Source: a virus. Taken from it: DNA of 64,000 nucleotides. Location: IMG/VR virus record IMGVR_UViG_3300017791_000124, positions 1,174 through 65,173 of that record; one strand, 5' to 3'. Below are positions 34,232-63,969 of the stretch, piece by piece. Below the pieces are notes generated by a model. The model had not been told where the DNA came from, searched no databases, and saw nothing but the letters and a program-made list of their open reading frames with translations. Made by a program: the position numbers and the translations under genes. The first letter of the stretch is position 1. Each line of letters begins with the position of its first letter.

Positions 34232-35689
34232 TCAGTGCGATCCGACGTCGATCGCGGTGGCGCCCCACGGCGCGCGGGCAATGTGCTCGCGCACTTGGTT
34301 GGGGAAGCCGGTGATCGCCCAAAGAACCGGGCAAGCCGGCTCATCGTGCGCGCTCGTGATCTCGTGATCACCATCGGTGAAGCACACGATCAGCGAAGCG
34401 TCGACTTCGTTCGCCACGTGCTCGAACAGCGGCGCCAGTTCGGTGCCGCCACCGCCACGCGGATCGAACTCGCATTCGTCGCCGCTCCGATAGGTGTCGA
34501 CGCGCGTCACCCGCGTGTCGCCGTAGATCACCACGACTTCGTCGATGATGTTCTCGTCGAGTGCCGCTTGCACTTCGACACCGATCGCCGCGAGCGCAAT
34601 GCGATCCATCGAACCCGAAGTGTCAACCAAGAACGCCGCACGGTTGACGCCTTCACGCTCGCGGCCGGGCAGATACAAGCCCGAGCCGATGAAGCGGCGA
34701 TTAGGACGCGACCACGTTTCGGTCGTCTGCGCGCCGCCGTCGAAAAAGGCACGCAAAGTCTCGCGCCAGTCTTGCGGGGGATGATCGTTCCGCTCGATCT
34801 CGCGCGTCACGTGCCCGGGAGCGTCGCCACGCTTGCGCGCGAGGCTGGCGGCCTCGCGCACGACGCGCTCCCATTTGGCGTCGACGTCGGCCCGCTCGCC
34901 GGCATCGGTCGCCGCGTCGAGCACTTCGCCGCAGCGGCCCGGGTCACCCGACGACGGGCCCGGTTTGGCCTCACCGGCATCGCTGCCGGCGTCCGAGCCT
35001 TCGCCGTCGCCAGAACCCTCGCCAGAGCCCTCGCCGGGCTCGCCAGCGTCGCCGTCGGCCGAGCCCTTGCCAGCGTCGCCAGCGTCGCCAGCCTCACCAG
35101 CGGCCTCGCCAGCCCCTTCGTCGCCAGCGCCTTCGTCGCCATCGGTTCCATCGGTTCCATCGGTGCCGGGCTGCTCGCCTTCGTCGCCGTCGTCGCCGGG
35201 CTTGCCGGCGTCGTCGTCTTCGTCGGCATCGCCGTCGCCTTCTTGCGGCTGCGGCTGTTGTTGCTGACGCTCAAGCTCCCGGGTGCGGTAGATGTCTTCG
35301 GCCGACATGCCTTCGAAGCGCCATTCGAGCAGGAAGCCCTTGGGCAGCTTGAAGCCCGCGCGGATCAGGTCCGGGTTGATCGCAAGATCGCAGCAAATAT
35401 TCCATTCCTGCGGATCGCGGTTGCCGCGACGCGTGTGATGCCGGCGCGCGTCGTGCTCGGTCTCGTGCGCTTGCGTGCCGAGCACTTCAACCTGCGGCAT
35501 GCCGCAAATGAATTCCGGGTTGAAAAAGTGCGTCGAGCCGTTCGTCGCCATCGTCGGGAAGTCCCGCGACGGCACCGCCTTAACTTGCGAGACCAGCACG
35601 CCGTAGAACGTGCGCTCAAGGATCAATTCTTGGCGCGCCTTGCTGACGCGCTCGGCGGCATCGGCCGCCACGGTGTCGATCGTTTGCAT
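34232..35689 (-). CDS. DUF2201-type protein: HExxH metallopeptidase-like N-terminus, acidic linker and vWA-like C-terminus
   Basis: TMATNG...AHETEH...WNICCDLAIN; W.RPNRRF; VDTSGSM, GGGGT, FTDG. Confidence 0.88.
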   Translation of the reverse strand: MQTIDTVAADAAERVSKARQELILERTFYGVLVSQVKAVPSRDFPTMATNGSTHFFNPEFICGMPQVEVLGTQAHETEHDARRHHTRRGNRDPQEWNICCDLAINPDLIRAGFKLPKGFLLEWRFEGMSAEDIYRTRELERQQQQPQPQEGDGDADEDDDAGKPGDDGDEGEQPGTDGTDGTDGDEGAGDEGAGEAAGEAGDAGDAGKGSADGDAGEPGEGSGEGSGDGEGSDAGSDAGEAKPGPSSGDPGRCGEVLDAATDAGERADVDAKWERVVREAASLARKRGDAPGHVTREIERNDHPPQDWRETLRAFFDGGAQTTETWSRPNRRFIGSGLYLPGREREGVNRAAFLVDTSGSMDRIALAAIGVEVQAALDENIIDEVVVIYGDTRVTRVDTYRSGDECEFDPRGGGGTELAPLFEHVANEVDASLIVCFTDGDHEITSAHDEPACPVLWAITGFPNQVREHIARAPWGATAIDVGSH

Positions 35690-43826: not shown

Positions 43827-44074
43827 CGTGCCAATCTCCTGTTGAGCTTGCGGAGCAGCCCTTGCAGATTTCCGATCTGTCGTTCGGCTTGCTCGATCTC
43901 TTCGCGCTCGCGCCGGCGCGTCTCACCAGTGGCTCGCGCTTGCGCGCTCAACGCCGGCCGGCAGGTCGTGCAGCGCTCGAACTCGTGAACCTCCAGCGGC
44001 TCGCCGCAAGCGAGGCATTGCCGGTTGCCGTGCATGCCGGGCAGCCGGCTTTCCGATTCAAGGCGCCGTCTCAT
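43823..44074 (-). CDS. Zn-ribbon plus coiled-coil small protein
   Basis: CLACG...CTTC. Confidence 0.55.
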   Translation of the reverse strand: MRRRLESESRLPGMHGNRQCLACGEPLEVHEFERCTTCRPALSAQARATGETRRREREEIEQAERQIGNLQGLLRKLNRRLAR

Positions 44075-45135
44075 GCCGCATCCTTTTTCCGCAGCCGGCC
44101 ATCGCGCACCAATTCGTCGAGGCATTTCTTCAAGAACGTCTGATCAGCGCAGCCGGTCGAGCGTGACAATTCCTCGACCGTCCACACATGGGGCGCGGTG
44201 TTGCGGAGCAGATCGAGAACCGTGCGCTTCAGCTTCTCGGCATCCGCCGGGCTCGGCGGCATGTCCCGCCATCCGCGTTCGAGCCGGTTGACGCGCTCGA
44301 TCGTCTTGCGCGCGTCCTCGATCATTCGCTCGCGCACTTCCGCTTCAAGCGCCACGCGCTCGGCCGCTATCTGCTCGCGTTCGATCTGCTCGCGCTCGCG
44401 TCGCGCAAGCTCTTGTCGCGCCGCGCGATTGAATGCGTCTTGCGCGAAAGCCGTCGCTTCGCGCTCTGCCGCCTCGCGCGCTTGCTGCTCCAGTCGCTCC
44501 CTGTGCTCCTGCGCCTCGCGTGCCTTCTGCTCGCGCCTGCGCGCGCGGGCCTCACGCGCTACCTTCTCGCGCTTGCGCCGGGCCCGCTCATCGGCCTTGT
44601 TCAACTCGCCGCGCTCGTCGAGCTTCCACTGCGGGACGAAGTGGCGACCTTCGACCTTGCCGAACCTGATTTCGCGCGTCGGCGCCGCTGCGTTCCATTC
44701 GGCGTCGGTGATCCTCTCGCGCAGCTTGCGCCGCTCTTTTGCTTGCTCGTGCTCGCGCTGCTCGCGCTCCAGTTCGGCGGCGGCGATCGCCTTCTCGTGC
44801 TCGCGGATCGCGCGGCGTGCCCACCACCGGCTCGATCGCGCCAGCCGCTGCTCGCGCTGCTCGGGCGTCTCGGGCGGGCGCGCGCGGATCGGCACCGGAC
44901 CCGCCTTGCGCACGATGTCGGGCTGGATGGTGTAGGGCCTCTGCCAGAACTCAAGCTCTTCGAGCGACACCGTGTCGGTGCAACACAGCGTGCCGTTGGC
45001 GATGCCGCGCGCCTTCACGTATTCCAGAAATGCGTGATCGTCGGCGTCGAGATCACGCGCCCAGAACCCATTATGCATGAGGCTGTAGAGATGCCGGGAA
45101 AATGATGTCCGGTAAACATAGGGCCGCGTCGCCAT
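44071..45135 (-). CDS. Coiled-coil protein with C-terminal wHTH-like domain
   Basis: Long E/R/A-rich helix; WTVEELSRSTG...LDELVRDGRL. Confidence 0.65.
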   Translation of the reverse strand: MATRPYVYRTSFSRHLYSLMHNGFWARDLDADDHAFLEYVKARGIANGTLCCTDTVSLEELEFWQRPYTIQPDIVRKAGPVPIRARPPETPEQREQRLARSSRWWARRAIREHEKAIAAAELEREQREHEQAKERRKLRERITDAEWNAAAPTREIRFGKVEGRHFVPQWKLDERGELNKADERARRKREKVAREARARRREQKAREAQEHRERLEQQAREAAEREATAFAQDAFNRAARQELARREREQIEREQIAAERVALEAEVRERMIEDARKTIERVNRLERGWRDMPPSPADAEKLKRTVLDLLRNTAPHVWTVEELSRSTGCADQTFLKKCLDELVRDGRLRKKDAA

Positions 45136-45138
45136 CGC

Positions 45139-45351
45139 TCATCCGCTCATTGCATGGTCCGCTTTCTTTCGATCCCGCGTCGCGATCTTGCTCTCGACAT
45201 AGCGATCGATCTCATCCTCGATCCAGCCGACTGCGCGGTTGCCGATCTTCACGGTGCGCGGGAAGCGGCCTTCGCTCATCAGCGCGTAGATCGTCCCCTT
45301 CGGGTGCCCGGTGCGGCGCTCGACTTCGGGCAAACGAATGATCGTCTTCAT
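45139..45351 (-). CDS. alpA: AlpA-family regulator/excisionase
   Basis: IIRLPEVERRTG..KGTIY....GRFP..VKIG.RAVGW...EID. Confidence 0.92.
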   Translation of the reverse strand: MKTIIRLPEVERRTGHPKGTIYALMSEGRFPRTVKIGNRAVGWIEDEIDRYVESKIATRDRKKADHAMSG

Positions 45352-45560
45352 CGGTCCTCCTTGCGCAGCAAGTCTTGCAGGATCAGCACAGCTTGCGTCA
45401 GGTTGCGCTCTTGTTGACGCGTCATCGTCACCGTGATGGGGCCTTCTCTTTCCAAGTACGCCGCCAGATCACGCGCGCGTGCGGCATCAGTCTCTTCTAT
45501 TGAGGCACGCAGCGGGCCGAGCAGGTCGAGCAGCAATCGCACGGTGTCGGCGTCCATCAT
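45348..45560 (-). CDS. Hypothetical protein
   Basis: Coupled ORF. Confidence 0.55.
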   Translation of the reverse strand: MMDADTVRLLLDLLGPLRASIEETDAARARDLAAYLEREGPITVTMTRQQERNLTQAVLILQDLLRKEDR

Positions 45561-45648
45561 TTCGTCACGACGCTGACAACCGCCCAGATGATCACCCCCC
45601 ACGTCAGCAAAGAACCGCCCACGGCGATCCACCGGATTTGTGTGTCGC

Positions 45649-45882
45649 TCATGTCGGCGTCGCCTTCCGCTCGGCTTCGATCTCCATTGCCTTGAGCCTC
45701 TCGCGCATGTTGTTCACCAAGCCCTTCATGGTCCCTTCCATTTTCACGAACGCGTTGTGATCGGCTTCAGCTTCGGCGAGCTTGCGTTCGGTCTCGCGCG
45801 CGTGCGTCGAGACCAGCTTGAGCACGCCGTCGAGTCCGGAAAGCTCTTCGCGTAGTGCGCGGATCGGATCAAAGTCGCTCAT
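45649..45882 (-). CDS. Coiled-coil hypothetical protein
   Basis: Coupled ORF. Confidence 0.55.
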   Translation of the reverse strand: MSDFDPIRALREELSGLDGVLKLVSTHARETERKLAEAEADHNAFVKMEGTMKGLVNNMRERLKAMEIEAERKATPT

Positions 45883-46121
45883 CCTTGCTCCCCGCGACAC
45901 CAAACATCGGCCACGCGGCTCGCGCAGCATCGATCAATGAACGCGACAGCTTCTGACAAAACCCTGTCCCGCCTCTCAACCGGCACGTCGGCGAGCGCGA
46001 AGCCCATGATGCCGGCACAGGCGGAAATGACGTCGACGACGTCGGTCCCGTCGGGGATCGCGTTACTGATCGTTATCGCGAGCCGATCCATGTAGACGTC
46101 ATAGTCGCTGCGCGTCGTCAT
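45879..46121 (-). CDS. Hypothetical protein
   Basis: Coupled ORF. Confidence 0.55.
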   Translation of the reverse strand: MTTRSDYDVYMDRLAITISNAIPDGTDVVDVISACAGIMGFALADVPVERRDRVLSEAVAFIDRCCASRVADVWCRGEQG

Positions 46122-46383
46122 CGGCTTCCCCTTCCTCGAACAGCGGCGGCGCCTGTTCGCGCGCATCGATTGGCCGAACCGGCGACTGCAGCGCCGCGAG
46201 CTTCACGTGCATCACCAGCGCCTCGATCTCGCGCTTGAGCAAATTACAATTCTTGGTGTGCTCGTCGTCGTGGTCGCTGCCATCGAACGCGACCTTGCAT
46301 GTTTTGGTCGCGGTGTGCGCGATGCGCCGCGCCTCGCTGGCGATCTGGCGGTTGAGTAGATAACGGCGCAGCGGCGCGGTCAT
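46099..46383 (-). CDS. Hypothetical protein
   Basis: ORF directly downstream of guide block A. Confidence 0.55.
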   Translation of the reverse strand: MTAPLRRYLLNRQIASEARRIAHTATKTCKVAFDGSDHDDEHTKNCNLLKREIEALVMHVKLAALQSPVRPIDAREQAPPLFEEGEADDDAQRL

Positions 46384-46408
46384 GATCTATCGGCCTATCG
46401 TGAATAAA

Positions 46409-46505
46409 GTGCGCCCGGCAGGCGCATCGTGGAGTTCAGCGTTACCTTGGCCGGGCGCGGCGGTCGCACATGCTCAATGGAGTTCAATTGCAATTTGGCG
46501 ACCGC
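46409..46505 (-). ncRNA. TIGR-like stem-loop guide array, block A (2 units)
   Basis: Constant stems and TGAACTCCA loop repeat separated by exactly 9-nt variable spacers. Confidence 0.85.
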
Positions 46506-46530
46506 ATTCTGTGTGTTGGTCATCGGCCCT

Positions 46531-46947
46531 TCACCGGATAATGTGATCGCGATCGGCCGGCGGCGGGTTGTCTGTGGCTATTGTCAATCCGCGCGGCAGC
46601 AAGCCCTGACCATTATTGCGGCGCATCGCGTTGGGCGTGATCGTCGTGGGGGCGACCGTTGCGCGCACGTTGTCGAGCTTCGCGGTCGCTTCATTCAATT
46701 GTGTTTCGGCTTTCATCAGATCATCGACCAGCCGACTATTGCGAAGCTCAAGATCGCGGTTGCGTTGCTGCAGGTCCGCGATCTCGCCGTTCAGCTTGTC
46801 GATCGCCTGCTCGCGCTCTTCAGCCTCTTGCATAAGGCGCGCGCGATCTTGCGCCGTCTCGGCGATGTCGGCGTACAGTAAGTGACCTTGCTCGGTGAGC
46901 TTGTCGATCAGGATTTTCGCGCCGGCGAGCTTGTCTACCGTGATCAT
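46531..46947 (-). CDS. Coiled-coil hypothetical protein
   Basis: GGAGGA RBS; heptad pattern. Confidence 0.65.
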   Translation of the reverse strand: MITVDKLAGAKILIDKLTEQGHLLYADIAETAQDRARLMQEAEEREQAIDKLNGEIADLQQRNRDLELRNSRLVDDLMKAETQLNEATAKLDNVRATVAPTTITPNAMRRNNGQGLLPRGLTIATDNPPPADRDHIIR

Positions 46948-47062
46948 GTCTTCCTCCCTGTTGAAACGAGCGGACAGGAGAAGCGAGCGATGGTCGTCAC
47001 CACGCCTCGCCGCAAGCGCGCGTCTTGCGTCCGGTCTCCTGCCCATTCCGCCGGCTCGAAAC

Positions 47063-47545
47063 TCATTGCAGTGTTCCCCGCATTGGCAGCATGCCGACAA
47101 ACCGTCCTTCGAAGTGTGCCGGCTCCATGAATTCGAGCGGGCCGAGCTTCGGCCGGTTGCCGTTGCCCGGGCGCGTGATGACGCGCTGCGCGGTCAGCAT
47201 GCCGGTCTCGTCTTCGGCCTGATACATCAGCGCTTCAATGCGGTTCGGATGATCGCTGAGCCCGTGCCGCGCGATCTCGTGCAGTTCGTCGTCGCTGAAG
47301 CCGGCTGGCGCGTAAAGCTGCCAAGCCTCGTTGACAAACACATAGCGCACCACGTCGTTAAGTTCGAAGTAAGCGCGCATCAGCAGCGCGGCGATGTCCT
47401 TGTCGAACGGCGGTGATGGCACGATTTTGTGCTCGCCGGATTCCGTGATGCTGTGCCACATCGGCAGAATCTCGCCGGCGTTGTCGAATATCTGCGTGAC
47501 CTTCGCGTCGGTCTTGATGATGAAATCGCGCAGTGTGTCGATCAT
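47063..47545 (-). CDS. Hypothetical protein coupled to the TasA-like gene
   Basis: ATGA overlap with the 47542 stop; YVFVNEAW...HPNRIE...GRF. Confidence 0.7.
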   Translation of the reverse strand: MIDTLRDFIIKTDAKVTQIFDNAGEILPMWHSITESGEHKIVPSPPFDKDIAALLMRAYFELNDVVRYVFVNEAWQLYAPAGFSDDELHEIARHGLSDHPNRIEALMYQAEDETGMLTAQRVITRPGNGNRPKLGPLEFMEPAHFEGRFVGMLPMRGTLQ

Positions 47546-48396
47546 CGTGGCGGCGGCGAAATTCTGTCGCCGTCCTCTTTCTTGTTTCGCGTAGGCTTCG
47601 CCGTCGTGGCGCAGCGATCCCACTCATTCCACAAGTCGAGCAAAAACTTTTTCATCGTAACGCGTAGCGCGTCCTTGCGACGGTGTCCGTCGCTCCAGTC
47701 GGGATGAGTTTCCTTGGTGTGCTCGCGCCGCTCGGCGTAGATTGCACCGTAGGGCCCGTTCGGCTTGCCCTCGCCGCTTTCGCTTTTCTTCGCGCCGATC
47801 CATTGGGCGTTGACCAACCATGTCGCGATCTGCGCCATCAGCGCATAGCGCTCACCGGAAAAGGGATTCTCAGTCCACTCTTCGGCTGACAACGCACGCG
47901 GTCGCCACGTCTGGCGCTTCCACGTGCTGCCAGCGTGGCCGTCATAGGGCGCGAAGCCGAGCCGCTTCCAAACCTTCGCGGGATACGCGTAGTCGGAGAG
48001 ATTGCCGGTCTCGGCGATGATGGTGGCGAGCCCCAGCGCGCCCGCGCCACGGATCGCTTCAACATACGGATACACTGGCAATTCCTTCGCGGCACGCTCC
48101 ATCGCTCTTTCGGCGGCAGCGCGCTTCTCGTCGGCCGGCTTACGGGCCTCGTCGCACATGCGGACCTCGTCGGCGAACTGGTGATCGGCGCCGGCACGGA
48201 TTCGCTCGATCAGCGCCTTGACCTCGCGGTTGGCTTTCTCTCGATCCTTCTCATCGGCGTTCGGATTCCACTCTGTTGCATTGATGCGGATAAAACTTTC
48301 GAGCGATCGGTCGAGCTTCTGTTGCACTTTCATCGCGAAGCGGCGCTGGCGATGCAGTCCGCGAATCAAAGCGATGGTCTCGGCGAGATCAGTCAT
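47542..48396 (-). CDS. tasA: TasA-like RNA-binding protein (IS110 C-terminal/Nop domain, no nuclease domain)
   Basis: Coiled coil then IRGAGALGLATIIAETGNLSDY..PAKVWKRLGFAP (IS110/Nop-type motif) and YGAIYAERR...H...ALRVTMKKFLLDLW; 284 aa with no RuvC/DEDD or HNH; begins just downstream of guide block B. Confidence 0.82.
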   Translation of the reverse strand: MTDLAETIALIRGLHRQRRFAMKVQQKLDRSLESFIRINATEWNPNADEKDREKANREVKALIERIRAGADHQFADEVRMCDEARKPADEKRAAAERAMERAAKELPVYPYVEAIRGAGALGLATIIAETGNLSDYAYPAKVWKRLGFAPYDGHAGSTWKRQTWRPRALSAEEWTENPFSGERYALMAQIATWLVNAQWIGAKKSESGEGKPNGPYGAIYAERREHTKETHPDWSDGHRRKDALRVTMKKFLLDLWNEWDRCATTAKPTRNKKEDGDRISPPPR

Positions 48397-48421
48397 GGAG
48401 TCATGCTCCGTTGGTGAAAGA

Positions 48422-48633
48422 GAGAGCGCCCGGCACATCGCGAATGGAGTTCAGAAGGTCCATGGCCGGGCGCAGCGGTCGCATTGGCGGCTTGGAGTTC
48501 ACAGCCGATCTGGCGACCGCGTTCGAGATGAGAGCGCCCGGCAGCGGCGCGCTGGAGTTCATGCGTTGCTTGGCCGGGCGCGGCGGTCGCATCGCAGCAT
48601 TGGAGTTCATCAGCCATCGGGCGACCGCGTTCG
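48422..48633 (-). ncRNA. TIGR-like stem-loop guide array, block B (4 units)
   Basis: Eight 9-nt spacers between conserved CCA/TG-bounded repeats. Confidence 0.88.
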
Positions 48634-48636
48634 TGA

Positions 48637-49323
48637 TCATTGCCGAGCATCCTCGATCGGCTCGGCTTTGTGGGCGCTGGCGATCAAGTCGTGCGCAACT
48701 CTTATGCTCCCATCGCGGATCACTTCGGCGGCTTTGATCTTCGCCGCCTTGAGCTTGGCTTCGACGACGTTCGGCGGGACTGCGTCTCGAACCTTGGTGA
48801 AGGGCTCGGACGCGACGCAATGGTCATTCAGCATCAGCAGTAAGATCGACTCGACGGCATCGTCATAGCCGCGTTGCAGAAAAGATGTTGCAGTGCTTGC
48901 CTGACTCTCGGCAATCGCGCGGAGTTCGTGGATATGGATGTCGCCGAGCCGGCCTGCGCCGCGAATCCGCCGCTCGAATATCTCGTGTCGGATCACCGTC
49001 CCGGCTTTGACGGTGCCGGCCTTCTGCGCCGCGCTCGGTGTGCCGAGCTTGACACGCCGATGCGGACCTTCACGGCGGCGACCTATCGGCTTCGGCGACT
49101 TCGACGGCTTCGGTGAGAGTGTCGGCGCCTCTGCCGTTTCTGGCGTCTCCGTCTTCAGCGGCAGCCGATCGAGATAGTCGGCCGCGAGCGCAATCAGTAA
49201 CGGTCGCTTGGCATTCTCCATAAGCATGCTCGCGAACTTCGGCGCGGCCTTCGTCACGTTGCCGTCGGTCGACTTCAGAATTTCGATGGCGGCAGTGCGG
49301 AGCTTATCGGTCGTGGTGTTCAT
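48637..49323 (-). CDS. Hypothetical protein between guide blocks B and C (candidate TIGR accessory)
   Basis: GGAGGA RBS before ATG 49323; fills the gap between two arrays. Confidence 0.7.
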   Translation of the reverse strand: MNTTTDKLRTAAIEILKSTDGNVTKAAPKFASMLMENAKRPLLIALAADYLDRLPLKTETPETAEAPTLSPKPSKSPKPIGRRREGPHRRVKLGTPSAAQKAGTVKAGTVIRHEIFERRIRGAGRLGDIHIHELRAIAESQASTATSFLQRGYDDAVESILLLMLNDHCVASEPFTKVRDAVPPNVVEAKLKAAKIKAAEVIRDGSIRVAHDLIASAHKAEPIEDARQ

Positions 49324-49348
49324 CAAGACGTTCCTCCGTTTCAAATTA

Positions 49349-49877
49349 GTGCGCCCGGCATCAGCTTGTGGGAGTTCATGAGCCTCTTGGCCGGGCGCGG
49401 CGGTCGCAGCGCGAGTGTGGAGTTCATCGGTGCCACGGCGACCGCGTTCGAGAAGAGAGCGCCCGGCAACTGACATGCGGAGTTCATCACCCTCTTGGCC
49501 GGGCGCAGCGGTCGCAAACGATGGATGGAGTTCACGTCACCATTGGCGACCGCGTTCGAATGGAGAGCGCCCGGCACTCGATTTTTGGAGTTCAGACCAA
49601 GGATGGCCGGGCGCGGCGGTCGCACTCCACGTTCGGAGTTCAGATGACGATTGGCGACCGCGTTCGAGATGAGAGCGCCCGGCATGGCTTCGTTGGAGTT
49701 CAGCCCATCCAAGGCCGGGCGCGGCGGTCGCAGCGCGATTGTGGAGTTCACTGTGTTGCTGGCGACCGCGTTCGAGATGAGAGCGCCCGGCAAGCGAGCT
49801 TTGGAGTTCACGGGTAGGATGGCCGGGCGCAGCGGTCGCAACGCCAGCATGGAGTTCATGTGTTCATTAGCGACCGC
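49349..49877 (-). ncRNA. TIGR-like stem-loop guide array, block C (10 units, 108-nt two-unit period)
   Basis: Twenty distinct 9-nt spacers; alternating GCGGTCG/CGACCGC and GCGCCCGG/CCGGGCGC stems. Confidence 0.9.
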
Positions 49878-49888
49878 ATTTCGATTGA

Positions 49889-50275
49889 TCATCGGCGGCA
49901 TCTCCATGTCCGTCCGTAAAACACCTTCCGCATTTTGTGCCGCGCGCAGATGTCGAGCTTCACGACCTTGGTGCGCAAACGCCGGTGCCGGGACGGCTGC
50001 AGGGCTGGGGGGCTCACTGCCGCCCCGGGCACCGCGTCCACTGCGCCGCTCTCTCGTGCGTTAGCGACGTAGCGAACCTGTGTGGCCGGCGGCATGTCAT
50101 AGAGCGGACGCCACCGCTGGCGGAACGTGTTGTCGTCTTCGCGCCGCGCTGTGATGCCTTCGGTCGCGACCGCCACCGGCGCGATCGGCGGCGAGGCTTT
50201 CCTAGGTCCGGCCACACCCGCGATCGCGAACGAGATCACAGGGATTGCGGCGAGCATGAAAGACCAGCGAACCAT
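49889..50275 (-). CDS. Secreted/membrane-anchored hypothetical protein
   Basis: N-terminal hydrophobic segment; C-terminal DICARHKMRKV...TWRCRR. Confidence 0.6.
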   Translation of the reverse strand: MVRWSFMLAAIPVISFAIAGVAGPRKASPPIAPVAVATEGITARREDDNTFRQRWRPLYDMPPATQVRYVANARESGAVDAVPGAAVSPPALQPSRHRRLRTKVVKLDICARHKMRKVFYGRTWRCRR

Positions 50276-50285
50276 GGCGTGCCTT

Positions 50286-50489
50286 TCACTTGCGCGGCAG
50301 ACCTGCGACGTATTGATCGATGCTCACTTGCGTGACACGCGTCATGCGCGCGCCGCCCTTCACGATTTCAAGCTTGCCGGTATCGATCAGCCGATAGACT
50401 TGCGCGCGACTGACACTAAGCTGTCGCGCCGCATCCTTCACTGTGCGCAGCTTGACGTCGCCGCCATCGTCATCGCTGCGCTTGTTCAT
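50286..50489 (-). CDS. Excisionase-like HTH (MerR/HTH_17) protein
   Basis: TVKDAARQLSVSRAQVYRLIDTGKL. Confidence 0.85.
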   Translation of the reverse strand: MNKRSDDDGGDVKLRTVKDAARQLSVSRAQVYRLIDTGKLEIVKGGARMTRVTQVSIDQYVAGLPRK

Positions 50490-51544
50490 GGGCCACCCCC
50501 GTCACCGTCCCAGCCCCGGCGCCACGCGTCGACCTCTGCCTCGCGACCGGCCTCACGATATTCGCCCGGGACGGCGGTGCGCTTCATGCCGGTGCGCTTC
50601 GCTTCCTTGCCGCGCTCCCAAGCGGTGTCGAGCCTGACCTTCGGGATGGCCGCCGGCTTGGCCGCTGTCGTCACTTCGCCGGTGGCGGCGTCGACGGTCT
50701 CGGTCTGCTCGCGCAGATGCGGCTCGGCACCACCGGGAATGTCGGGCGTCGGCTCGGGCTCGCCGTCATCGGCGAACTGATCGAGTGCTGCGGCAGCGCC
50801 GCGCGGACGGCCGAGCTTCTTGGGCGGCGGTGCCGCCACGTAGCCGGCTGGCGCGACGTCCTCGCCTTCATCCTCGCGGCTGATCAGTTCGTCGAGCCCG
50901 TGCGGCATCGGCAACAGCTTGCACAGCCGCTTCAGCGCGGTCTTCTTGCGCATCTCATCCGTCCACTGCGCCCACGGCGAATCCTCACCGCGCGCGCGAG
51001 AGACATTGCGAATGCGCGTCATCTCCGTTTCATTGATTGTGGAGACGAAGAACCCTCCGCCCTTGGTGATGGCTGCCGCGTAAGTTTCGATCACCTTGCC
51101 GTTGCCCGGGCCCGGGCGATGCAGAAAGTGCTGGCCGTGCTCGTCGAGCCAGATGTCGAACTCGCGATCGTCGTCGCGGTGCAGGCCGGCGCCGATCCAT
51201 TTATACTCGCCCGACTGCTCAAAGCGGTCGATGAGCCCGCGATACATGGGTTGCCACTTGGCCTTGCCCTTGTACGGCACGATCACGCCCTGCCGGCGAT
51301 CGGGCAACAGACCGTCGTTGGTGGCTTCGAGCAGCGCCTGCCAGAGCGATTGGAACGACACGTCGCTGATAAGCTCGGGCTGCATCATCGCGGCGGTGAC
51401 TGCCGCACGAATGAAGCGATCCGCGCTGATGCCGGACCCTTCGAGCGCATGTTCAAGCTCGGCACGCCGCTGCAAGAGCCGATCGCGCAACACGGCGATC
51501 GCCGGCACCGCCTTGGTCTCACGCTCAATCACTTGAGTGCTCAT
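50486..51544 (-). CDS. recT: RecT-family single-strand annealing protein
   Basis: GLLPD..QGVIVPY...WQPMYRGLI, SPWAQWTDEMRKKTALKRLCKLLP. Confidence 0.9.
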   Translation of the reverse strand: MSTQVIERETKAVPAIAVLRDRLLQRRAELEHALEGSGISADRFIRAAVTAAMMQPELISDVSFQSLWQALLEATNDGLLPDRRQGVIVPYKGKAKWQPMYRGLIDRFEQSGEYKWIGAGLHRDDDREFDIWLDEHGQHFLHRPGPGNGKVIETYAAAITKGGGFFVSTINETEMTRIRNVSRARGEDSPWAQWTDEMRKKTALKRLCKLLPMPHGLDELISREDEGEDVAPAGYVAAPPPKKLGRPRGAAAALDQFADDGEPEPTPDIPGGAEPHLREQTETVDAATGEVTTAAKPAAIPKVRLDTAWERGKEAKRTGMKRTAVPGEYREAGREAEVDAWRRGWDGDGGGP

Positions 51545-51566
51545 GCTTCATTTCCCTTCTGAATAA

Positions 51567-51772
51567 GTGCGCCCGGCATCGTTGCAGTGGAGTTCATGGC
51601 CTGTTTGGCCGGGCGCGGCGGTCGCATACGGGTCGTGGAGTTCACGCCGCCATTGGCGACCGCGTTGGTGGATAGGTGCGCCCGGCAAACCTGAGATGGA
51701 GTTCATGTATCCATGGGCCGGGCGCGGCGGTCGCATCCTCGCAATGGAGGTCACGAGATCAATGGCGACCGC
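51567..51772 (-). ncRNA. TIGR-like stem-loop guide array, block D (4 units)
   Basis: Same repeat grammar; intergenic between yqaJ and recT. Confidence 0.88.
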
Positions 51773-52065
51773 ATTCGATTCCATTTGGCGCGGAGTCGCG
51801 CCTTGTCGTTCCGATTGGTGATTGTTTGTGCCGCACGCGCGAGGCGCGCCGCGCCTATTGCCGGGCGGTTGACTGGCGATTGAACCCCGGGGGGAAAGAT
51901 CGCCCCCGCCTATTTCCCCGTGAGGGGTGTTGTATTCAGCGGGCCGCCCGACAAGGGAGGCCCCGGAGTTCAGGTAGTACCAAGCACTGCACCAGTCACG
52001 ATACACGCTTGGAGGATGGAGGTTCATATACTCACCTTGGGTGTGTCAAGTGTGATCCTCGTCGG

Positions 52066-53007
52066 TCATGGCGCGCGCTCATGCTCATTGCGTGCCACGC
52101 GCAGCACGCGGAAACTGGATGCCGGCACGGTGTATTCGCTGCGGTGCTGAAGCTTCCAAGTGACCCGCCAGCCGGGCACCAGCGCGCCTTCGGCATCGCC
52201 GATCTTGGCCTTGATCTCGTCTTCGGCTGCCTTCAGCCGCTTCTGCACGTCCTTCTCGGTGTCCTTCAAAATCTGCCGGCGTTCGAGCAAGTCGCCGATG
52301 GCATTATCGGTCGAGAGATCGATCACCTTGCCGGGAGTCTCATTCGGAAACATCAGCGCGATGAGATCACCGTCGCGCTCGAAGTCGATCACCGGCTGAT
52401 CGCCGGCATCGAACTTGAGCCAGAACGCGGCGGCGGCGGTGCGCAGGCGCAACTCGGCCTTGCGGTTGCGCTCGACCGGGAAGACTCGCGCTTCGAATGT
52501 GAAGTCGCCGATGATCAGCGCGCCGAGCGCGCCCCACGTGCAGTCGGGGATCAGCATCATTTCGGTCGCAAGCTGCAACAGATAGCCGAGCGGCGGTGTG
52601 CCGTCCGGCCATTTCCTTTTGAAGACGGGTTGCGCCACGGTCTTGATCTGCAGCGAGCCGACGCCGTCGCGCGCGGGATCGATCACGAGAAAGTCCGGCG
52701 TGCAGGCGATGCGCGCCACTGGGTCAACATACTGGTGCTCACAGCGAGAGATGCGCCACGTCGGGTGCAGCTTTTGGACTTCGTCCATCGCGTCATCTTC
52801 CAGCGCGTTGCCGCGCCGGATCAGTGGGCTGTCGGGATCGACGTCGCTTTCGAGCCCGCGCATCTCGGCGGTGAGCCGGGCCAAGGTCTTATAATCGTGC
52901 AGGCCGAAGACGCAGGCGATGTCGGAGGCATTCAGGTAGTGGCGGCGGCGTTCGAGCCAGTCGCTGCGGTCTCCGATCGGATGAGCTTCCACTCCGGTGG
53001 CTGTCAT
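52066..53007 (-). CDS. YqaJ/lambda-exonuclease family recombination nuclease
   Basis: WLERRRHYLNASD, RGNALE, CTPDF, LQIKT, YLLQLATEM. Confidence 0.9.
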   Translation of the reverse strand: MTATGVEAHPIGDRSDWLERRRHYLNASDIACVFGLHDYKTLARLTAEMRGLESDVDPDSPLIRRGNALEDDAMDEVQKLHPTWRISRCEHQYVDPVARIACTPDFLVIDPARDGVGSLQIKTVAQPVFKRKWPDGTPPLGYLLQLATEMMLIPDCTWGALGALIIGDFTFEARVFPVERNRKAELRLRTAAAAFWLKFDAGDQPVIDFERDGDLIALMFPNETPGKVIDLSTDNAIGDLLERRQILKDTEKDVQKRLKAAEDEIKAKIGDAEGALVPGWRVTWKLQHRSEYTVPASSFRVLRVARNEHERAP

Positions 53008-53062
53008 CTCGTGTGACCCTTAAACGTGTTGACGTCGGGCTGGCGATTTCGTTCCCGGTCCT

Positions 53063-53151
53063 ATGGAGAAAAATGAGACGCACTGAGAAGCACTGAGACG
53101 CATAGAGACGCATGGAGACAATATCTGTTCCTATTTCCTGTGCGTCTCCAT
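53063..53151. repeat. 10-bp-period direct repeats (GAGACGCAct) in the divergent control region
   Basis: TGAGACGCAC TGAGAAGCAC TGAGACGCAT AGAGACGCAT GGAGACAA, plus an inverted copy at 53141-53151. Confidence 0.75.
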
Positions 53152-53441
53152 GGACTTATATCGACGTACCGAGACCCTGCGCCGTGTCTGATCGATCGTC
53201 AAGCGGTCCGCGATTCGGCGCGCGCGGCGTCATCTGAATTTCATATTGCCGGCTCGTGGCTTATCGGTCGCCAAAATTTTTTCTTGCGTGGCGCGCTGCC
53301 CGGTGGCTTCCTCGCATGTCTTCCACGAGCCCGCACTGCTTTGCTGCCAAGAGCCTTTCGCGCTCTGCGTTTTTTCCGTGCGGTGCTCGCAACAAAACCA
53401 ATTGCAGGGGTATTCCCTGAGTTGGGCAGGCGGAAACCCCG

Positions 53442-53729
53442 ATGCCGCAACAACATTGTCCACATTGCCACAAACCCCTGCAGCCGACACGCTACGGTGT
53501 GGGCTTTGGCCCGCTCGCGATCCGCATCATCGACGCGATTGAGACCGCCGGCCCCGCCGGCATCAGCAGTACTGACCTATTTCGCGCGGCCTATCGCGAG
53601 CGCAACGGCGCCACGGTCGAGCGGCTGAAAAGCTACATCGGCTCGATCAACGCCGCGCTCGCCGGCAAGGGCTTCGCCATCCGCATCGATCGCGCTTCCG
53701 ATCGCGTCATCATGAGGCGACGCGCATGA
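53442..53729 (+). CDS. Zn-ribbon/winged-helix DNA-binding protein
   Basis: CPHC...; LKSYIGSINAAL..KGFAIR. Confidence 0.65.
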   Translation: MPQQHCPHCHKPLQPTRYGVGFGPLAIRIIDAIETAGPAGISSTDLFRAAYRERNGATVERLKSYIGSINAALAGKGFAIRIDRASDRVIMRRRA

Positions 53730-54316
53730 CGGTGGCCGATCGACAGCCGTTGATCTGGGCGCTCGACATCGCCACGGTCACCGGCTGCGCCATCGGCAAG
53801 GTGGGCGATCGACCGAAGGCGCATTCGGTTCGCTTCGCGCCGGCGGGCGCGTCGAGCGATACGCTGTTCGCCGGCTGCTTCGAATGGTTCGGCGAGATGA
53901 TCGAGAAGGGCCCGTTGCCCGACATCTTGATGATCGAGGAACTGCTGCCGCCGATCGCGCGGCGCGGCACCACCAACACACAGACACAGCATCGGCTCGC
54001 CGGCTTGCACGGCGTGGTGCGCGCGATGGCGAAGCACGCGGCGATTCCAGAGATCGCCAGCGCCAACGTGCTCGACGTGCGGGCACACTTCATTCAGGCG
54101 CGCAACCTCAAGCGCGACGCAGCCAAGCGCGCGGTGTTCATCCGCTGCAAGATGCTCGGCTGGCTCGCGAGCGACGATAACTGTGCCGACGCGCTCGCGC
54201 TGTGGAGCTACACCGCCGGCCTAATCAATCCGGCGACGGCGCTCGCGGTAACGCCGCTGTTCTCATCGTGGGAAGAGGTGGCGAAGGCGCGCGAAGCAAA
54301 GCGGGGTGAGTCATGA
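53726..54316 (+). CDS. RuvC-like Holliday junction resolvase
   Basis: IWALDIATVTG, LMIEE, DDNCADALAL. Confidence 0.8.
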   Translation: MTVADRQPLIWALDIATVTGCAIGKVGDRPKAHSVRFAPAGASSDTLFAGCFEWFGEMIEKGPLPDILMIEELLPPIARRGTTNTQTQHRLAGLHGVVRAMAKHAAIPEIASANVLDVRAHFIQARNLKRDAAKRAVFIRCKMLGWLASDDNCADALALWSYTAGLINPATALAVTPLFSSWEEVAKAREAKRGES

Positions 54317-56493
54317 CACCCGCTTTCCGTCACTGGGTCGAGCGCGCGCGGGCCGAGCACGTCACCGCGATTCTGCGCGGGCGGCAGATCAACCTCATGG
54401 GGCGCGGCAACCGACGCGCCGGCCCGTGTCCGAAGTGCGGCGGCGAGGATCGCTTCGCGGTCGATCTGGAAAAAGAGGTTTTCAATTGCCGGGGCTGCGG
54501 CGGCAAGGGCCATGGCTCGATCAGCCTTGTGGAGTTTCTCGACGGCGTGAACTTCCTGCAGGCGGTCGAGATCATCACCGGCGAGCCGCCGCCAAAGGAT
54601 GAAGCGAAGCAGGCGAAGCCGCGCGAGCGCAAGGCGCGCGGCAAATTCGTGTGCGCCTATGACTACACCGACGAGCTTGATGTCCTCGGCTATCAGGTCT
54701 GCCGCTATGCCGAGCCGAAGAGCTTCTCGCAGCGGCGGCCCGATCCGGATCACGACGGCGAATGGATCGGTGATCTCAAGGGCGTGCGGCTGGTGCCGTA
54801 TCACTTGCCCGACATGATCGAGGGCATTGCCAATGACCATCCGGTCTACTGGGTCGAGGGTGAAAAGGACGCCAACACTGGCGCAGCTTTGGGGCTGGTG
54901 ACGACCACGACCGCGATGGGACTCGCCGGCAAGGGCCATTGGGAGCGCGGTGCCTACGATGAATTTTTCAAGGGCGCGAAAGTGATCCTGATGCCGGATC
55001 AGGACGCTGATCCGCGCAAGGGCGGCGCGCTCGCGCGTGTCATCGCCAAGCGGCTGTTACCGATCGCAGCTTGCGTGTTCATGCTGAACCTGCCGGCCAA
55101 GGACTTGAGCGAATGGGTCGAGCAGGGTGGCACGCGCGAGGCGCTCGACGAGATTCCGCTGCAGGAAGTGCCGGCGACCAACGGCCACGACCACGACGCG
55201 CTGGATGCGTTTGAAGCCCAATGGGAGCCGCCGGGCAACACGAGCCAAGCGCCGGCGATCAAGCCGGTGCCGACGGTGCGACCGTTCCCGATCGACGGCG
55301 CAAGCATTCCGCGCCGGCCATGGGTGATCCCCGGATGGCTGTTGCGCCGACACGTCTCGGTGCTGGTCGCGCCGCCGGGCTCGGGCAAGTCTCTGCTCAC
55401 GCTGCAGGCCGCGTTGATGATGGGCACGGCGATGCAATGGGGCGGCTGGCATCCGCGCGGTGCGTTCAAGGTGCTGGTGATCAACAGCGAGGACGACAAC
55501 GACGAGATGCGCCGCCGGCTCTATGCCGGCGCCAAGATCATGAACTGCGACGAGCAGATGCTGAGCGAGCGGATCGTGCTTGCCGACGCGCCGGAAGACA
55601 TCGTGATCGCGCGCGCCGACAGCAAGACGAAAACGGTGATCCGCACGCCGATGGTCGAGAACCTGATCGCCACCATCACGGCCGGCGGCTTCGACGTGGT
55701 GATCATCGATCCGTTCGCCGAATGCTTCGAGGGCGACGAGAACTCGAACAGCGAATTGAAATGGGCGGCGCTGTTGTGGCGCGAGATCGCGCGCCGGACC
55801 AACTGTTCGGTGCTGCTGGTGCATCACACGAGGAAGTATGCCAACGAGCCGGGCGACATGGACGCGGCACGCGGCGCCGGCGCGCTGCTCGGTGTCGCGC
55901 GCGTGGTGTCGACCGTGTTCACCATGAGCGAGAGCGAGGCGCAGGCGTTCGAGATCGATGCGGAGCGGCGCCACGAATATCTGCGCTTCGACGACGCCAA
56001 GGCGAACCTCTCGCTGGTGACGTTCAAGGCGCGCTGGTTTTTCAAGCGCACGTTCACGCTGCCGAACGGCACCGATGATGAGCCGGCCGATCAGCTTGGC
56101 GTGCTGGAGCCGTGGCAGCCGTCGACGGTGTTCGACAAGCTCGACGCCGGCACCGCGCGGACAATCCTGCTCATCATCGACAAAGGCGTGGTGGTCGATG
56201 ACGGCAAGCCGAAGCTCGCGACCGATCAAGGCGTGCTCGTGCCGGACAAGCCTGACCCCTACACGCTGACACGACGCGGCAAGGCGGCGCCACGCTGGGC
56301 CGGGACCGTGGTGATGGATCACGTGTCGTGTAGCGAGAAGGAAGCGCAGAAGCTGTTGAACATCTGGATCAAGAATCGCGTGCTGGTCGAGATCGATGTC
56401 GAGACGTCGACCAGCAAGGGGCAGAAGCGCAAGGGGCTCAAGGTCAACATGGCCCGGCTGCCGGGCACGCTCAGCGATGAGACATCGCTGTGA
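54313..56493 (+). CDS. Primase-helicase (Zn finger, TOPRIM, AAA_25 helicase)
   Basis: GPCPKCGGEDRF..CRGC; VEGEKDA, MPDQD, KDLSEW; APPGSGKS, IIDP, VHHTRK. Confidence 0.9.
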   Translation: MTPAFRHWVERARAEHVTAILRGRQINLMGRGNRRAGPCPKCGGEDRFAVDLEKEVFNCRGCGGKGHGSISLVEFLDGVNFLQAVEIITGEPPPKDEAKQAKPRERKARGKFVCAYDYTDELDVLGYQVCRYAEPKSFSQRRPDPDHDGEWIGDLKGVRLVPYHLPDMIEGIANDHPVYWVEGEKDANTGAALGLVTTTTAMGLAGKGHWERGAYDEFFKGAKVILMPDQDADPRKGGALARVIAKRLLPIAACVFMLNLPAKDLSEWVEQGGTREALDEIPLQEVPATNGHDHDALDAFEAQWEPPGNTSQAPAIKPVPTVRPFPIDGASIPRRPWVIPGWLLRRHVSVLVAPPGSGKSLLTLQAALMMGTAMQWGGWHPRGAFKVLVINSEDDNDEMRRRLYAGAKIMNCDEQMLSERIVLADAPEDIVIARADSKTKTVIRTPMVENLIATITAGGFDVVIIDPFAECFEGDENSNSELKWAALLWREIARRTNCSVLLVHHTRKYANEPGDMDAARGAGALLGVARVVSTVFTMSESEAQAFEIDAERRHEYLRFDDAKANLSLVTFKARWFFKRTFTLPNGTDDEPADQLGVLEPWQPSTVFDKLDAGTARTILLIIDKGVVVDDGKPKLATDQGVLVPDKPDPYTLTRRGKAAPRWAGTVVMDHVSCSEKEAQKLLNIWIKNRVLVEIDVETSTSKGQKRKGLKVNMARLPGTLSDETSL

Positions 56494-62670: not shown

Positions 62671-63572
62671 AAGTCCGCTCGGAAGCTGCAGCACCTTGGA
62701 CGAAATGGTATCGCTGGCGCCGCTGGAAACAGATGCGCGCGCACCAACTGGCGTTCGAGCCGCTGTGCCGCCTGTGCAAGCGCAACGGCAAGATCACGCC
62801 GGCGAACATCGTCGACCACGTCGAGCGTCACTTCGGCGATCCGGAAAAATTCTGGTGCGGCGAACTGCAGAGCGTGTGCCGCTACTGCCACGAAGTGCGG
62901 AAAAAATTCATCGAGTCACGCGGCTACGATCGCGCCGTCGGTCCCGACGGATGGCCGCTCGATCCGAACCATCCCGCCAACCTGCCGCGCGACGTCTTCC
63001 GCAGATTCGGCTTTTCCATCCCGCACAATCTGCGCGCTTCGGCGATCCCGGTTTTTCTCGTCTGCGGCCCACCGGCTTCGGGAAAAACAACGTGGGTCAA
63101 CACGCGCAAGGCGTTCGGCGACACCGTCATTTCGCTCGACGACTGCAAGATCGCTGTCGGCGGTCGAGCTTGGGACACCGATCGCAGGATTTTCCGTCGT
63201 GCCATGGCTTATCGCGACAGCATGCTGCGGATGCTGGCGCTGAAAACACAGGGTCGAGCTTTCGTTGTGATCGGAGGACCAACACAGGCAGAGCGTGATG
63301 CGTGGTGTAAGGCTCTCGGTGTCGAGTCCGACAACGTCGTGGTGCTCGACACTCCCGCCGACGAGTGCATTCGCCGACTCGGCGCTGATCCTGCTCGCGC
63401 TCTGGCTCGTGCGGATTTGGAAAATGGCGTGAAGCGTTGGCACTTCCTGTACAGGAAGGGTGCGCCCGGCAGCGCTTCACTGGAGATCACTGGCACTATG
63501 GCCGAGCGCACAGCGATTGCACCTGAGACGTGGAGTTCAGTTGTATCATGGCGATCGCCGCAAATAGGCTAA
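62667..63572 (+). CDS. Packaging-type HNH endonuclease fused to a P-loop (AAA_33-like) kinase
   Basis: EPLCRLC...VDHV..H.GD...QSVCRYCH; VCGPPASGKTT. Confidence 0.82.
   Translation: MKVRSEAAAPWTKWYRWRRWKQMRAHQLAFEPLCRLCKRNGKITPANIVDHVERHFGDPEKFWCGELQSVCRYCHEVRKKFIESRGYDRAVGPDGWPLDPNHPANLPRDVFRRFGFSIPHNLRASAIPVFLVCGPPASGKTTWVNTRKAFGDTVISLDDCKIAVGGRAWDTDRRIFRRAMAYRDSMLRMLALKTQGRAFVVIGGPTQAERDAWCKALGVESDNVVVLDTPADECIRRLGADPARALARADLENGVKRWHFLYRKGAPGSASLEITGTMAERTAIAPETWSSVVSWRSPQIG
63460..63557 (-). ncRNA. Orphan TIGR-like guide block E (2 units), antisense within the HNH gene 3' end
   Basis: GCGCCCGGCA-9nt-TGGAGATCA-9nt-TGGCCGAGCGC...GCGATTGCA-9nt-TGGAGTTCA-9nt-TGGCGATCGC. Confidence 0.75.
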
Positions 63573-63600: not shown

Positions 63601-63969
63601 AAGAAGTCTCTGTGCTGCAGGCACATCTTGCATCGATGTAAGAAACCTCTGCGCTGCAAGCACTTGTGACACATAGAGACGCACTGAGACGCATGGAGAC
63701 AACAGTTTCACGTGAAACGATCAAAGAAGTCCTTGTGCTGCAGCCACATCTACGATTCAAAAAGTCACTGTGGCACAGGCACTTCTCGCATTGGTGAGAT
63801 ACACTGAGACGTAGTGAGACGTACTGAGACGTATGGGACGCATGGAGATAGAAGGATATTCTTCCCCTGCAGGCAGAGCGCTAAAAGCTCAATCATATCA
63901 AATGGTTGCATGGCATATGCGGAACGGTCCTTGGCGTCTTCCTAATCCTTCAATGAAATCAAAGACTTA
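63601..63969. promoter_or_regulatory. Repeat-rich non-coding region (candidate cos/packaging or control locus)
   Basis: Four ~28-bp direct repeats, GAGAC decamers, parS-like GTTTCACGTGAAAC (63705-63718) and IHF-consensus sites (~63896, ~63957). Confidence 0.55.

Follow-up and report, generated by a model that had tools for sequence, protein, structure and literature searches.

Alternating two-hairpin modules in the stem-loop TIGR-TasA arrays of a phage and its relatives

The guide RNAs of TIGR systems, the tigRNAs, are described as having two short spacers (8-12 nucleotides, nt), each with a box C (CCA) on its 5' side and a box D (UG) on its 3' side, and, between the spacers, a loop repeat of 9 nt with an A-rich middle (Faure et al. 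2025, PMC12045711; Xu et al. 2026, bioRxiv 10.64898/2026.09.09.750476; here and below, statements about published TIGR systems refer to the searchable text of the papers). In one class, termed "stem-loop", every unit is closed by a palindromic stem (Faure et al.; Xu et al.). Described examples are PlTasA from a Peromyscus leucopus gut contig, BlTasA and MbTasA (Faure et al.; Xu et al.; Guan et al. 2026, bioRxiv 10.64898/2026.08.11.744272), and Xu et al. list the folding, the cutting and the growth of stem-loop arrays as open questions. Here, an array of this class is reported for the window, i.e., the whole stretch of 64,000 nt that was analysed, which lies within a 65-kb phage record (IMG/VR record IMGVR_UViG_3300017791_000124, positions 1,174 to 65,173). 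Its hairpins belong to two stem families, called B and A, which alternate strictly, and the two-hairpin module was found across the clade of related phages.

The kind of system, stem-loop TIGR-TasA, is already known, and the window has many features in common with the published examples. Both have a nuclease-free, Nop-like Tas protein, tandem hairpins with two 9-nt spacers, box C (CCA), box D (UG) and a 9-nt loop; in both, the arrays are located on the tas strand and on both sides of tas, are split into sub-arrays and are borne by phages. The stems differ: the published ones are variable palindromes that diverge within an array, whereas here two near-invariant families alternate. Also unlike the published arrays, the two hairpins of a pair are only 0-1 nt apart, the linkers of 13-16 nt are conserved, and recET-like genes are interleaved with the blocks. 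A description of alternating stems was not found in the TIGR papers as far as their text is searchable, while the layout may already be shown in their figures or supplementary material (Xu Extended Data Fig. 2; Faure fig. S12-S13 and table S1; TIGRSafari).

Three further systems are related. The dual-repeat TIGR systems with TasR or TasH (TaTasR, PDB 9MTY; SpTasH, PDB 9W02-9W04) have the same boxes, 9-nt spacers, A-rich 9-nt loop repeat and protein fold (Z 14.8-16.0). However, unlike the window units, their guides have a length of 36 nt, an edge pairing of 2-4 bp and no long stem, and, unlike the window TasA, TasR and TasH possess a Y/H processing loop and nuclease domains of the RuvC or HNH type (Xu et al.). 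The IS110 bridge RNA, which acts with recombinases such as IS621 and ISCro4 (PDB 8WT6, 8WT9, 9T56), has two stem-loops with split guides in each, as in the B-A module, and the proteins have a related RNA-binding domain (PF02371; Z 12.0-12.5). In contrast to IS110, the window has no DEDD/RuvC-like catalytic domain and 22 tandem units instead of one bridge RNA, and no transposon ends were seen; a classification as IS110-family bridge-RNA transposon was rejected on the basis of the 284-amino-acid (aa) protein without catalytic domain and the 22 tandem units. Finally, the archaeal box C/D small RNAs with Nop5 also carry two guides on each RNA together with a closing stem, and their Nop-domain protein is likewise a dimer (Z about 7), but, unlike the window system, they have a k-turn with L7Ae and fibrillarin, and the TIGR papers give DNA, not RNA, as the target of the TIGR guides.

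Hairpin units, blocks and TasA of the window

The units were called with a stem/loop parse. Block coordinates are given on the plus strand, and the units are read on the minus strand. The parse yielded 22 hairpin units, all of which are on the minus strand. They are grouped around a tas gene into five intergenic blocks, which contain 2, 4, 10, 4 and 2 units:

46411..46505, minus strand: Block A, 2 units (1 pair), ending 27 nt before the start of the open reading frame (ORF) 46099-46383
47542..48396, minus strand: tasA, 284 aa, nuclease-free Tas protein with a Nop/IS110-C-terminal-like fold
48426..48628, minus strand: Block B, 4 units (2 pairs), directly upstream of tasA, ending 29 nt before the start codon at 48396
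49351..49877, minus strand: Block C, 10 units (5 B-A pairs), the interval that a first-pass annotation of the sequence had reported as 49349-49877
51569..51772, minus strand: Block D, 4 units (2 pairs), upstream of the RecT gene, ending 24 nt before the start codon at 51544
63462..63558, minus strand: Block E, a distant degenerate pair with altered stems

Block C begins 11 nt past the stop codon of ORF 49889-50275 and ends 27 nt ahead of the start of a gene for a 228-aa protein. The first unit of block D has the loop UGACCUCCA. The altered stems of block E are GCGATCGC with one C-A mismatch and GCGCTCGGC with one U-G pair.

The B stem has 8 bp (GCGGTCGC/GCGACCGC) and the A stem has 9 bp (GCGCCCGGC/GCCGGGCGC). 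The alternation is strict for all 22 units, and each block has B as the first and A as the last hairpin on the minus strand. The loop is exactly 30 nt long in every unit. A B hairpin is followed after 1 nt by an A hairpin and then by a linker of 13-15 nt, which results in a period of 108 nt; Tandem Repeats Finder reported this period at 49388-49877 (4.5 copies) and at 48422-48637 (2.0 copies). Thus, three claims of the first-pass annotation, i.e., strict stem alternation, a two-guide period of 108 nt and even blocks of 2, 4, 10, 4 and 2 units, were all reproduced. It had also described shared boundary sequences of blocks A, C and D. These are present as reported (AAT directly before GCGGTCGC at the start, and GCCGGGCG followed by CAC and an AT-rich tail at the end), but the edges of block B have the internal form (AAC before the first stem and CTCTC after the last), and the relatives use the "boundary" form also as internal linker, so that it is not boundary-specific. 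The annotation had furthermore characterized the units by their stem types. The stem types are indeed conserved, but they are only a part of the repeat, because conservation extends to the 9-nt loop repeat and to both boxes, C (CCA) and D (UG).

On the minus strand, all 22 units have the order stem, (C)CA, 9 nt, UGAACUCCA, 9 nt, U(G), stem, and the loop repeat reads UG N4 CCA. A CA follows the stem in 17 of the 22 units, the loop ends with CCA in 19, and the UG as well as the two spacers of 9 nt are present in all of them. Box C, box D and the loop motifs are identical in A and B hairpins. The motif GGAGTTCA occurs 24 times in the window, compared with an expectation of 1.42, and none of 100 shuffles reached 24. 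When a scanner was trained on 90 units of other phages only, its hits in the window were exactly these 22 on the minus strand; the plus strand gave no hit, and neither did 10 dinucleotide-preserving shuffles. This anatomy matches the published tigRNAs with respect to box C/D, the 9-nt spacers and the 9-nt loop, which counts for the identity of the units as tigRNAs. Together with the tasA gene among the blocks, it bears out the reading as guides that had been proposed from the sequence. The repeats are a stem-loop TIGR array, with tigRNAs for the nuclease-free TasA of a soil-type phage; by analogy to the published systems, the guides would be loaded onto TasA and would direct its binding to DNA.

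The TasA protein was compared at the sequence and at the structure level. The profile of the TasA family matched TasR (PDB 9mty_A, E 3.5e-4), and the IS110 C-terminal family PF02371 was found in 35 of 35 TasA homologues at E<=0.1 (best E 5.9e-6); the window TasA alone reached 16.3 bits, which is under the cut-off of 21.3 bits. These matches agree with a Tas protein, for which a Nop-like RNA-binding domain with a coiled coil is expected. The AlphaFold2 (AF2) model is all-helical and has a pLDDT of 84.6. With this model, the top 10 Foldseek hits were all TasR or TasH (probability 1.00), and VIA gave Z 16.0 to TasH (root-mean-square deviation 2.7 over 199 residues), 14.8 to TasR, 12.0-12.5 to the bridge recombinases IS621 and ISCro4, and about 7 to Nop5 and Nop56/58. 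Residues 5-265 of TasA align to residues 65-283 of TasH, and residues 9-266 to residues 112-300 of TasR. The alignments start past the nuclease domains of TasH and TasR, and therefore the 284-aa protein is a nuclease-free TasA; in accordance with that, no nuclease family was found in it with Pfam, and no catalytic domain with Pfam or in the AF2 model. The Nop domain PF01798 of Pfam had no match in the phage genome at E<=10, and TasA resembles the IS110 C-terminal/Tas branch rather than PF01798.

Rfam gave no match over the whole window at gathering thresholds. A CRISPR array, in which a direct repeat of 25-40 nt would alternate with single spacers of about 30 nt beside cas genes, was rejected: the spacers have 9 nt and occur two per unit, and the repeat consists of stem and loop. 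No cas family was found by Pfam/PHROG-type scans among the 10 neighbouring proteins that were scanned, the rest of the genome not being included.

Stem covariation and alternation among the relatives

Relatives were gathered by a TasA alignment search, which resulted in 24 viral loci and one Xanthobacteraceae metagenome-assembled contig, i.e., 25 loci (L029-L053). In all 25 loci the units were located on the tas strand, with 5-32 units per locus according to the strict detector, compared with 0-2 on the opposite strand. The totals of a position-and-pair scanner over the related loci were 467 on the tas strand and 6 on the opposite strand, which served as its control. A second pass of the scanner added 12 units with indels, one of which, with a score <13, was excluded from the block counts. 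A search with cmsearch (model R1) gave 473 matches, the best 300 of which were listed; the clade-wide unit counts are those of the scanner, not of cmsearch. The CCA closing the stem was present in 352 of 412 units and the UG in 396 of 412. Other approaches were less useful. A first tolerant hairpin detector found as many hits on the wrong as on the right strand and was dropped. A pattern scan with the loop motif matched 4 stretches in viral contigs, of which the sole related one (L009) is on the same contig as L029, and 16 stretches in genome contigs; none of L010-L028 contained a unit, and they are short tandem repeats whose periods differ from that of the array.

The first-pass annotation had proposed a covariance model of the blocks. 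The stems were indeed found to be kept by compensatory change: in an alignment of 111 units, 315 cells were altered on both sides, compared with 105 in shuffles, and none of 500 shuffles reached 315. The stem cells were paired in 98.3% of cases, compared with 30-47% in slid controls, whereby pairing of the inner six pairs was the detection criterion. The outer two pairs, which were not required by the detector, were paired in 108 and 99 of the 111 units, respectively. In the relatives, 73 G-U pairs were found compared with 42 A-C mismatches, with a scoring that favoured G-U; the excess fits an RNA that is read from the tas strand.

These results also bear on the idea that the repeats are not guides at all, and would instead be a coding repeat of 18/36 aa, REP/BIME-like extragenic palindromes or protein-binding sites in the DNA. 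Bacterial interspersed mosaic elements (BIMEs) also alternate two palindrome types. Furthermore, the periods of 54 and 108 nt are multiples of 3, and an ORF of 188 aa spans block C on the gene strand. However, the ORFs of different blocks are in different frames relative to the unit, and one shifts its frame inside block D, which rejects a coding repeat. In addition, the variable segments are exactly 9 nt long and are framed by CCA and UG, the stems covary, and Tas is encoded on the same strand in 25 of 25 loci. Repeats without a guide function are thus hardly credible.

For the neighbour and parity statistics 23 non-redundant loci were used; L033, L038 and L046 were excluded because all, or all but one, of their guides are common with L032, L037 and L045. 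Stems were regarded as shared when at least 7 of 8 bases were alike. By this definition, neighbouring units shared a stem in only 2 of 331 cases, while next-but-one units did so in 192 of 255. The gaps between units were bimodal across the loci. In one class the gaps are short, with the peak at a true junction of 0-1 nt, and in the other they measure 10-19 nt. The clade module is therefore a B hairpin, 0-1 nt, an A hairpin and a pyrimidine-rich linker of 13-16 nt. The stems themselves differ between sub-clades (ACGGTCGC and GAGCCCGGC in L032, ATCTCGGC and CCGAGGGC in L048), and the period-2 pattern persists. In the most distant loci, L052 and L053, almost each unit has its own stem, as in the published arrays. 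What is conserved throughout is that neighbours differ, and two alternating families are the minimal form of this, where the repeats are uniform. The alternating two-hairpin module is a real, clade-wide and quantifiable variant of the known system.

The clade thus gives a clean natural rule, consisting of two stem families, unlike neighbours, a fixed B-then-A phase, a junction of 0-1 nt and a conserved linker. With this rule, several questions become accessible to direct testing, namely the need for differing neighbour stems, the cut sites of the precursor, and recombination between like repeats as the driver of growth. It is also a practical guide for compact multi-guide TasA arrays.

Folding, growth and content of the blocks

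An explanation that combines insulation during folding with a parity preserved by recombination is regarded as somewhat likelier to be right than wrong. The blocks would be read on the minus strand together with the early recombination operon of the phage, and each hairpin would present its two 9-nt spacers between box C and box D, separated by the 9-nt loop repeat. By analogy to published TasA, a TasA dimer would sit on one hairpin, spacers A and B would each pair with a different strand of the DNA, and TasA would bind the target, and probably repress it, without cutting. With the two stem families, no other pairing would span a shorter range than the intended hairpin with its 30-nt loop. Recombination of A with A and of B with B would add or remove only whole B+A periods, and the blocks would in this way stay even.

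With regard to folding, the presence of two stem families has the consequence that no 3' half-stem is complementary to the next 5' half-stem, and a competing helix with a loop of 1-16 nt can therefore not form. When pairs were folded alone, 11 of 11 gave the two expected hairpins 1 nt apart (z -2.9 to -5.0). In the transcript of 10 units the B stems were native with a probability of 0.94-1.00, and all 85 native stem pairs were formed when base pairs were allowed to span no more than 60 nt.

With regard to growth, the blocks at the same gene position differ widely in size. Upstream of the 228-aa gene 10, 22 and 24 units were found across related phages, and between the 228-aa gene and tasA 4, 10 and 2 units. 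A comparison of block positions and unit counts among relatives had been proposed in the first-pass annotation, and the sizes at a given gene position were found to differ by even numbers. Upstream of tasA, L037 and L039 differ by exactly one whole pair. Even numbers were found for 15 of 15 blocks in the window, L029, L031 and L032, and for 67 of 90 blocks in the non-redundant loci. Several "orphan" units adjoin a decayed hairpin of the partner type (L034, L039, L040 and L043). The content of the guides changes on a smaller scale. In the comparison of L037 with L039, a B unit keeps its position and its A partner is replaced; one A guide is present in two blocks of L037 (4859-4904 and 5928-5973); and in the sister phages L037, L039 and L040 several guides have one 9-nt spacer exactly in common and a different second spacer. 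The guides thus change in steps of half a unit, which would reflect either exchange inside the loop repeat or spacers that track diverging targets.

Several observations weigh against the explanation given above. The minimum-energy fold of the 10-unit transcript (-254.3 kcal/mol) swaps four of the five A stems between units, the probabilities of the native A-stem pairs are only 0.03-0.50, and the best fold with all stems native (-252.6 kcal/mol) is 1.7 kcal/mol above the predicted minimum. Parity is not absolute, as 23 of 90 blocks are odd and true single units exist in the distant loci L049 and L051. Guide content is swapped below the level of the pair, by single units and single 9-nt spacers, and the window showed no sign of duplicated guides, the best identity being 11/18 and the average null maximum 10.2. 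As to targets, no self-match with <=2 mismatches was found in the window for both geometries with gaps of 0-2 nt, a search that left out the one-base-overlap (17-nt) geometry, and 409 distinct guides had no exact match in the 411 kb of the window and the related loci, host genomes not being part of the search. Finally, the absence of promoter-like sites on either strand of 44000-54500, which would fit reading with the operon, comes from a scan with the sigma-70 consensus, which may not suit this host.

The first-pass annotation had stated that alternation stops neighbouring guides from mis-pairing. This stands as far as the complementarity of adjacent half-stems is removed and all 11 pairs fold as expected alone, but not for the fold of the 10-unit transcript with its four swapped A stems. 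It is partly supported by these predictions that alternation helps a local, presumably co-transcriptional, folding, and the native fold is not guaranteed by alternation alone. The annotation had also named the pair as the unit of expansion or mobility. The number of units does change by pairs, but the content is exchanged by single units or spacers, and about a quarter of the blocks are odd.

Alternation could also be without function, as the legacy of an ancestral two-unit module that was amplified, with stem families kept uniform by concerted evolution (gene conversion). The replacement of A by A between blocks and the guide present twice in L037 point to conversion between like units. The linkers within blocks B and C are near-identical to one another, while the block ends differ, and the units of L052 and L053 with nearly always their own stem indicate that two types are not required. 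On the other hand, stems were replaced in a compensatory manner among sub-clades (GCGGTCGC/ACGGTCGC, GCGCCCGGC/GAGCCCGGC, and ATCTCGGC/CCGAGGGC in L048), and yet the period of two and the differing neighbours persisted with the two exceptions mentioned above; moreover, no array of the related loci has collapsed to one stem type. A functionless legacy is therefore considered rather unlikely.

Another possibility is that the B-A pair as a whole is the mature RNA, i.e., a two-headed guide with its stems stacked base to base, on which two TasA dimers about 17 bp apart would engage two DNA sites by looping or bridging, akin to the two-loop bridge RNA of IS110. Across the clade, the distance within a pair stays at 0-1 nt and that between pairs at 13-16 nt, the phase is fixed, with blocks that begin with B and end with A, and the smallest blocks are single pairs. 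The bridge recombinases IS621 and ISCro4 are the next closest to TasA in fold, and Faure et al. liken the bridge RNA to a fusion of two tigRNAs. If this were true, the clade would be a living intermediate between single-hairpin TIGR guides and the IS110 bridge RNA, located in a recET-like operon, and the pair as one functional RNA would link TIGR guides and bridge RNAs. However, the partners are not inherited together, as seen for the A unit that was replaced while B stayed, and published stem-loop tigRNAs are processed to single hairpins (Faure et al.). The reconstructed target sites of partner guides within a pair do not overlap either, and the sole significant overlap joins units of different blocks. 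A two-headed guide is thus regarded as distinctly improbable.

This overlap concerns the units at 51679 and 63513, whose reconstructed sites coincide at 14 of 16 positions with a shift of 2 nt (score 10, null maximum 9). It would favour a geometry in which the reverse complement of spacer B comes after spacer A, and the 3' overhangs that Faure et al. reported fit this geometry too. Self-hits with three mismatches in the window were 5 and 15 for the two geometries, compared with about 9.9 in mis-paired controls, and thus no excess was present. For the 409 guides in the 411 kb, hits with one mismatch were 2 and 1, compared with 0 and 1 in the controls. With two mismatches, near-duplicate loci being included, there were 61 hits compared with 32 in the controls for spacer A plus reverse complement of spacer B, and 41 compared with 50 for the other geometry.

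Neighbouring genes and further repeats

Three of the genes near the blocks were characterized further:

48637..49323, minus strand: 228-aa gene, helical protein between blocks C and B, without Pfam, PDB or fold match, a possible accessory partner
50486..51544, minus strand: RecT-family annealing protein (PF03837, E 3.6e-25; phrog_148)
52066..53007, minus strand: YqaJ/RecE-like exonuclease (PF09588, E 1.3e-10; phrog_434, E 1.7e-47)

A small helix-turn-helix protein is also encoded among the minus-strand neighbours. The main blocks are interleaved with the recET-like genes over 5.4 kb, and one further pair is 12 kb off. Within 8 kb of tasA, RecT homologues were found in 10 and homologues of the YqaJ-type exonuclease in 11 of the 25 related loci; this TasA clade is habitually embedded in a phage recombination module.

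All blocks are located in gaps between minus-strand ORFs. They start 8, 11, 25 and 293 nt past the upstream stop codon, and in four of the four main blocks the last hairpin is 24-29 nt ahead of the next start codon. Terminator-like sites in 44000-54500 were at chance level. The common strand, the absence of promoter-like sites in the scan of this region and the regular gene spacing are consistent with guides derived from the RNA of an early operon. This would fit the earlier proposal that the guides are cut out of the early mRNA, which would here be polycistronic. Stem-loop guides have been reported even inside the tas reading frame (Faure et al.; Xu et al.). The CUU motif of the published processed ends is not consistently present in the window linkers, which read UCUCAUCUCGAAC or CACCUAUC...

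The 228-aa gene has a homologue beside tasA in 14 of the 25 related loci, and 11 of the 25 have no homologue within 8 kb. A stretch rich in arginine is conserved in the protein; R82, R84 and G86 are invariant in it, and R83, H88, R89 and R90 near-invariant. In the model, this stretch sits in a low-confidence linker between helical parts. The protein may be an RNA-binding partner. It was rejected as a Tas protein: the single sequence had no match to a PDB sequence, the best profile E was 0.84, Foldseek gave nothing at E<=0.001, and a wide VIA search had a best Z of 6.7 with generic helical hairpins, which is not evidence of a new fold. The position of the gene between the blocks, the homologues beside tasA and the invariant residues would agree with two stem types that are read by two proteins, e.g., by TasA on one and by the 228-aa protein on the other. 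However, box C, box D and the loop, the known contact points of Tas, are identical on both hairpin types, the 11 loci without a nearby homologue still alternate, and no RNA-binding fold was found for the 228-aa protein. Two readers are thus very improbable.

A non-coding gap of 293 nt (51773-52065) between the exonuclease gene and block D contains several GC-rich hairpins. Two loop-like motifs were found in it 55 nt apart, GGAGTTCA at 51965-51972 and a copy with one mismatch near 52020; they may be remnants of units or belong to a small RNA of their own.

Repeats of other types are also present in the window. Direct repeats of the GAGACGCA type with a period of 10 nt were found at 53074-53119, in the divergent early control region, and at 63668-63848, near the right end; they are probably operators or binding sites. 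Runs of repeats with a period of 9 nt are located at 9288-10260, 27485-27609 and 35007-35237, and if translated they would encode collagen-like Gly-X-Y, which is typical of tail-fibre genes.

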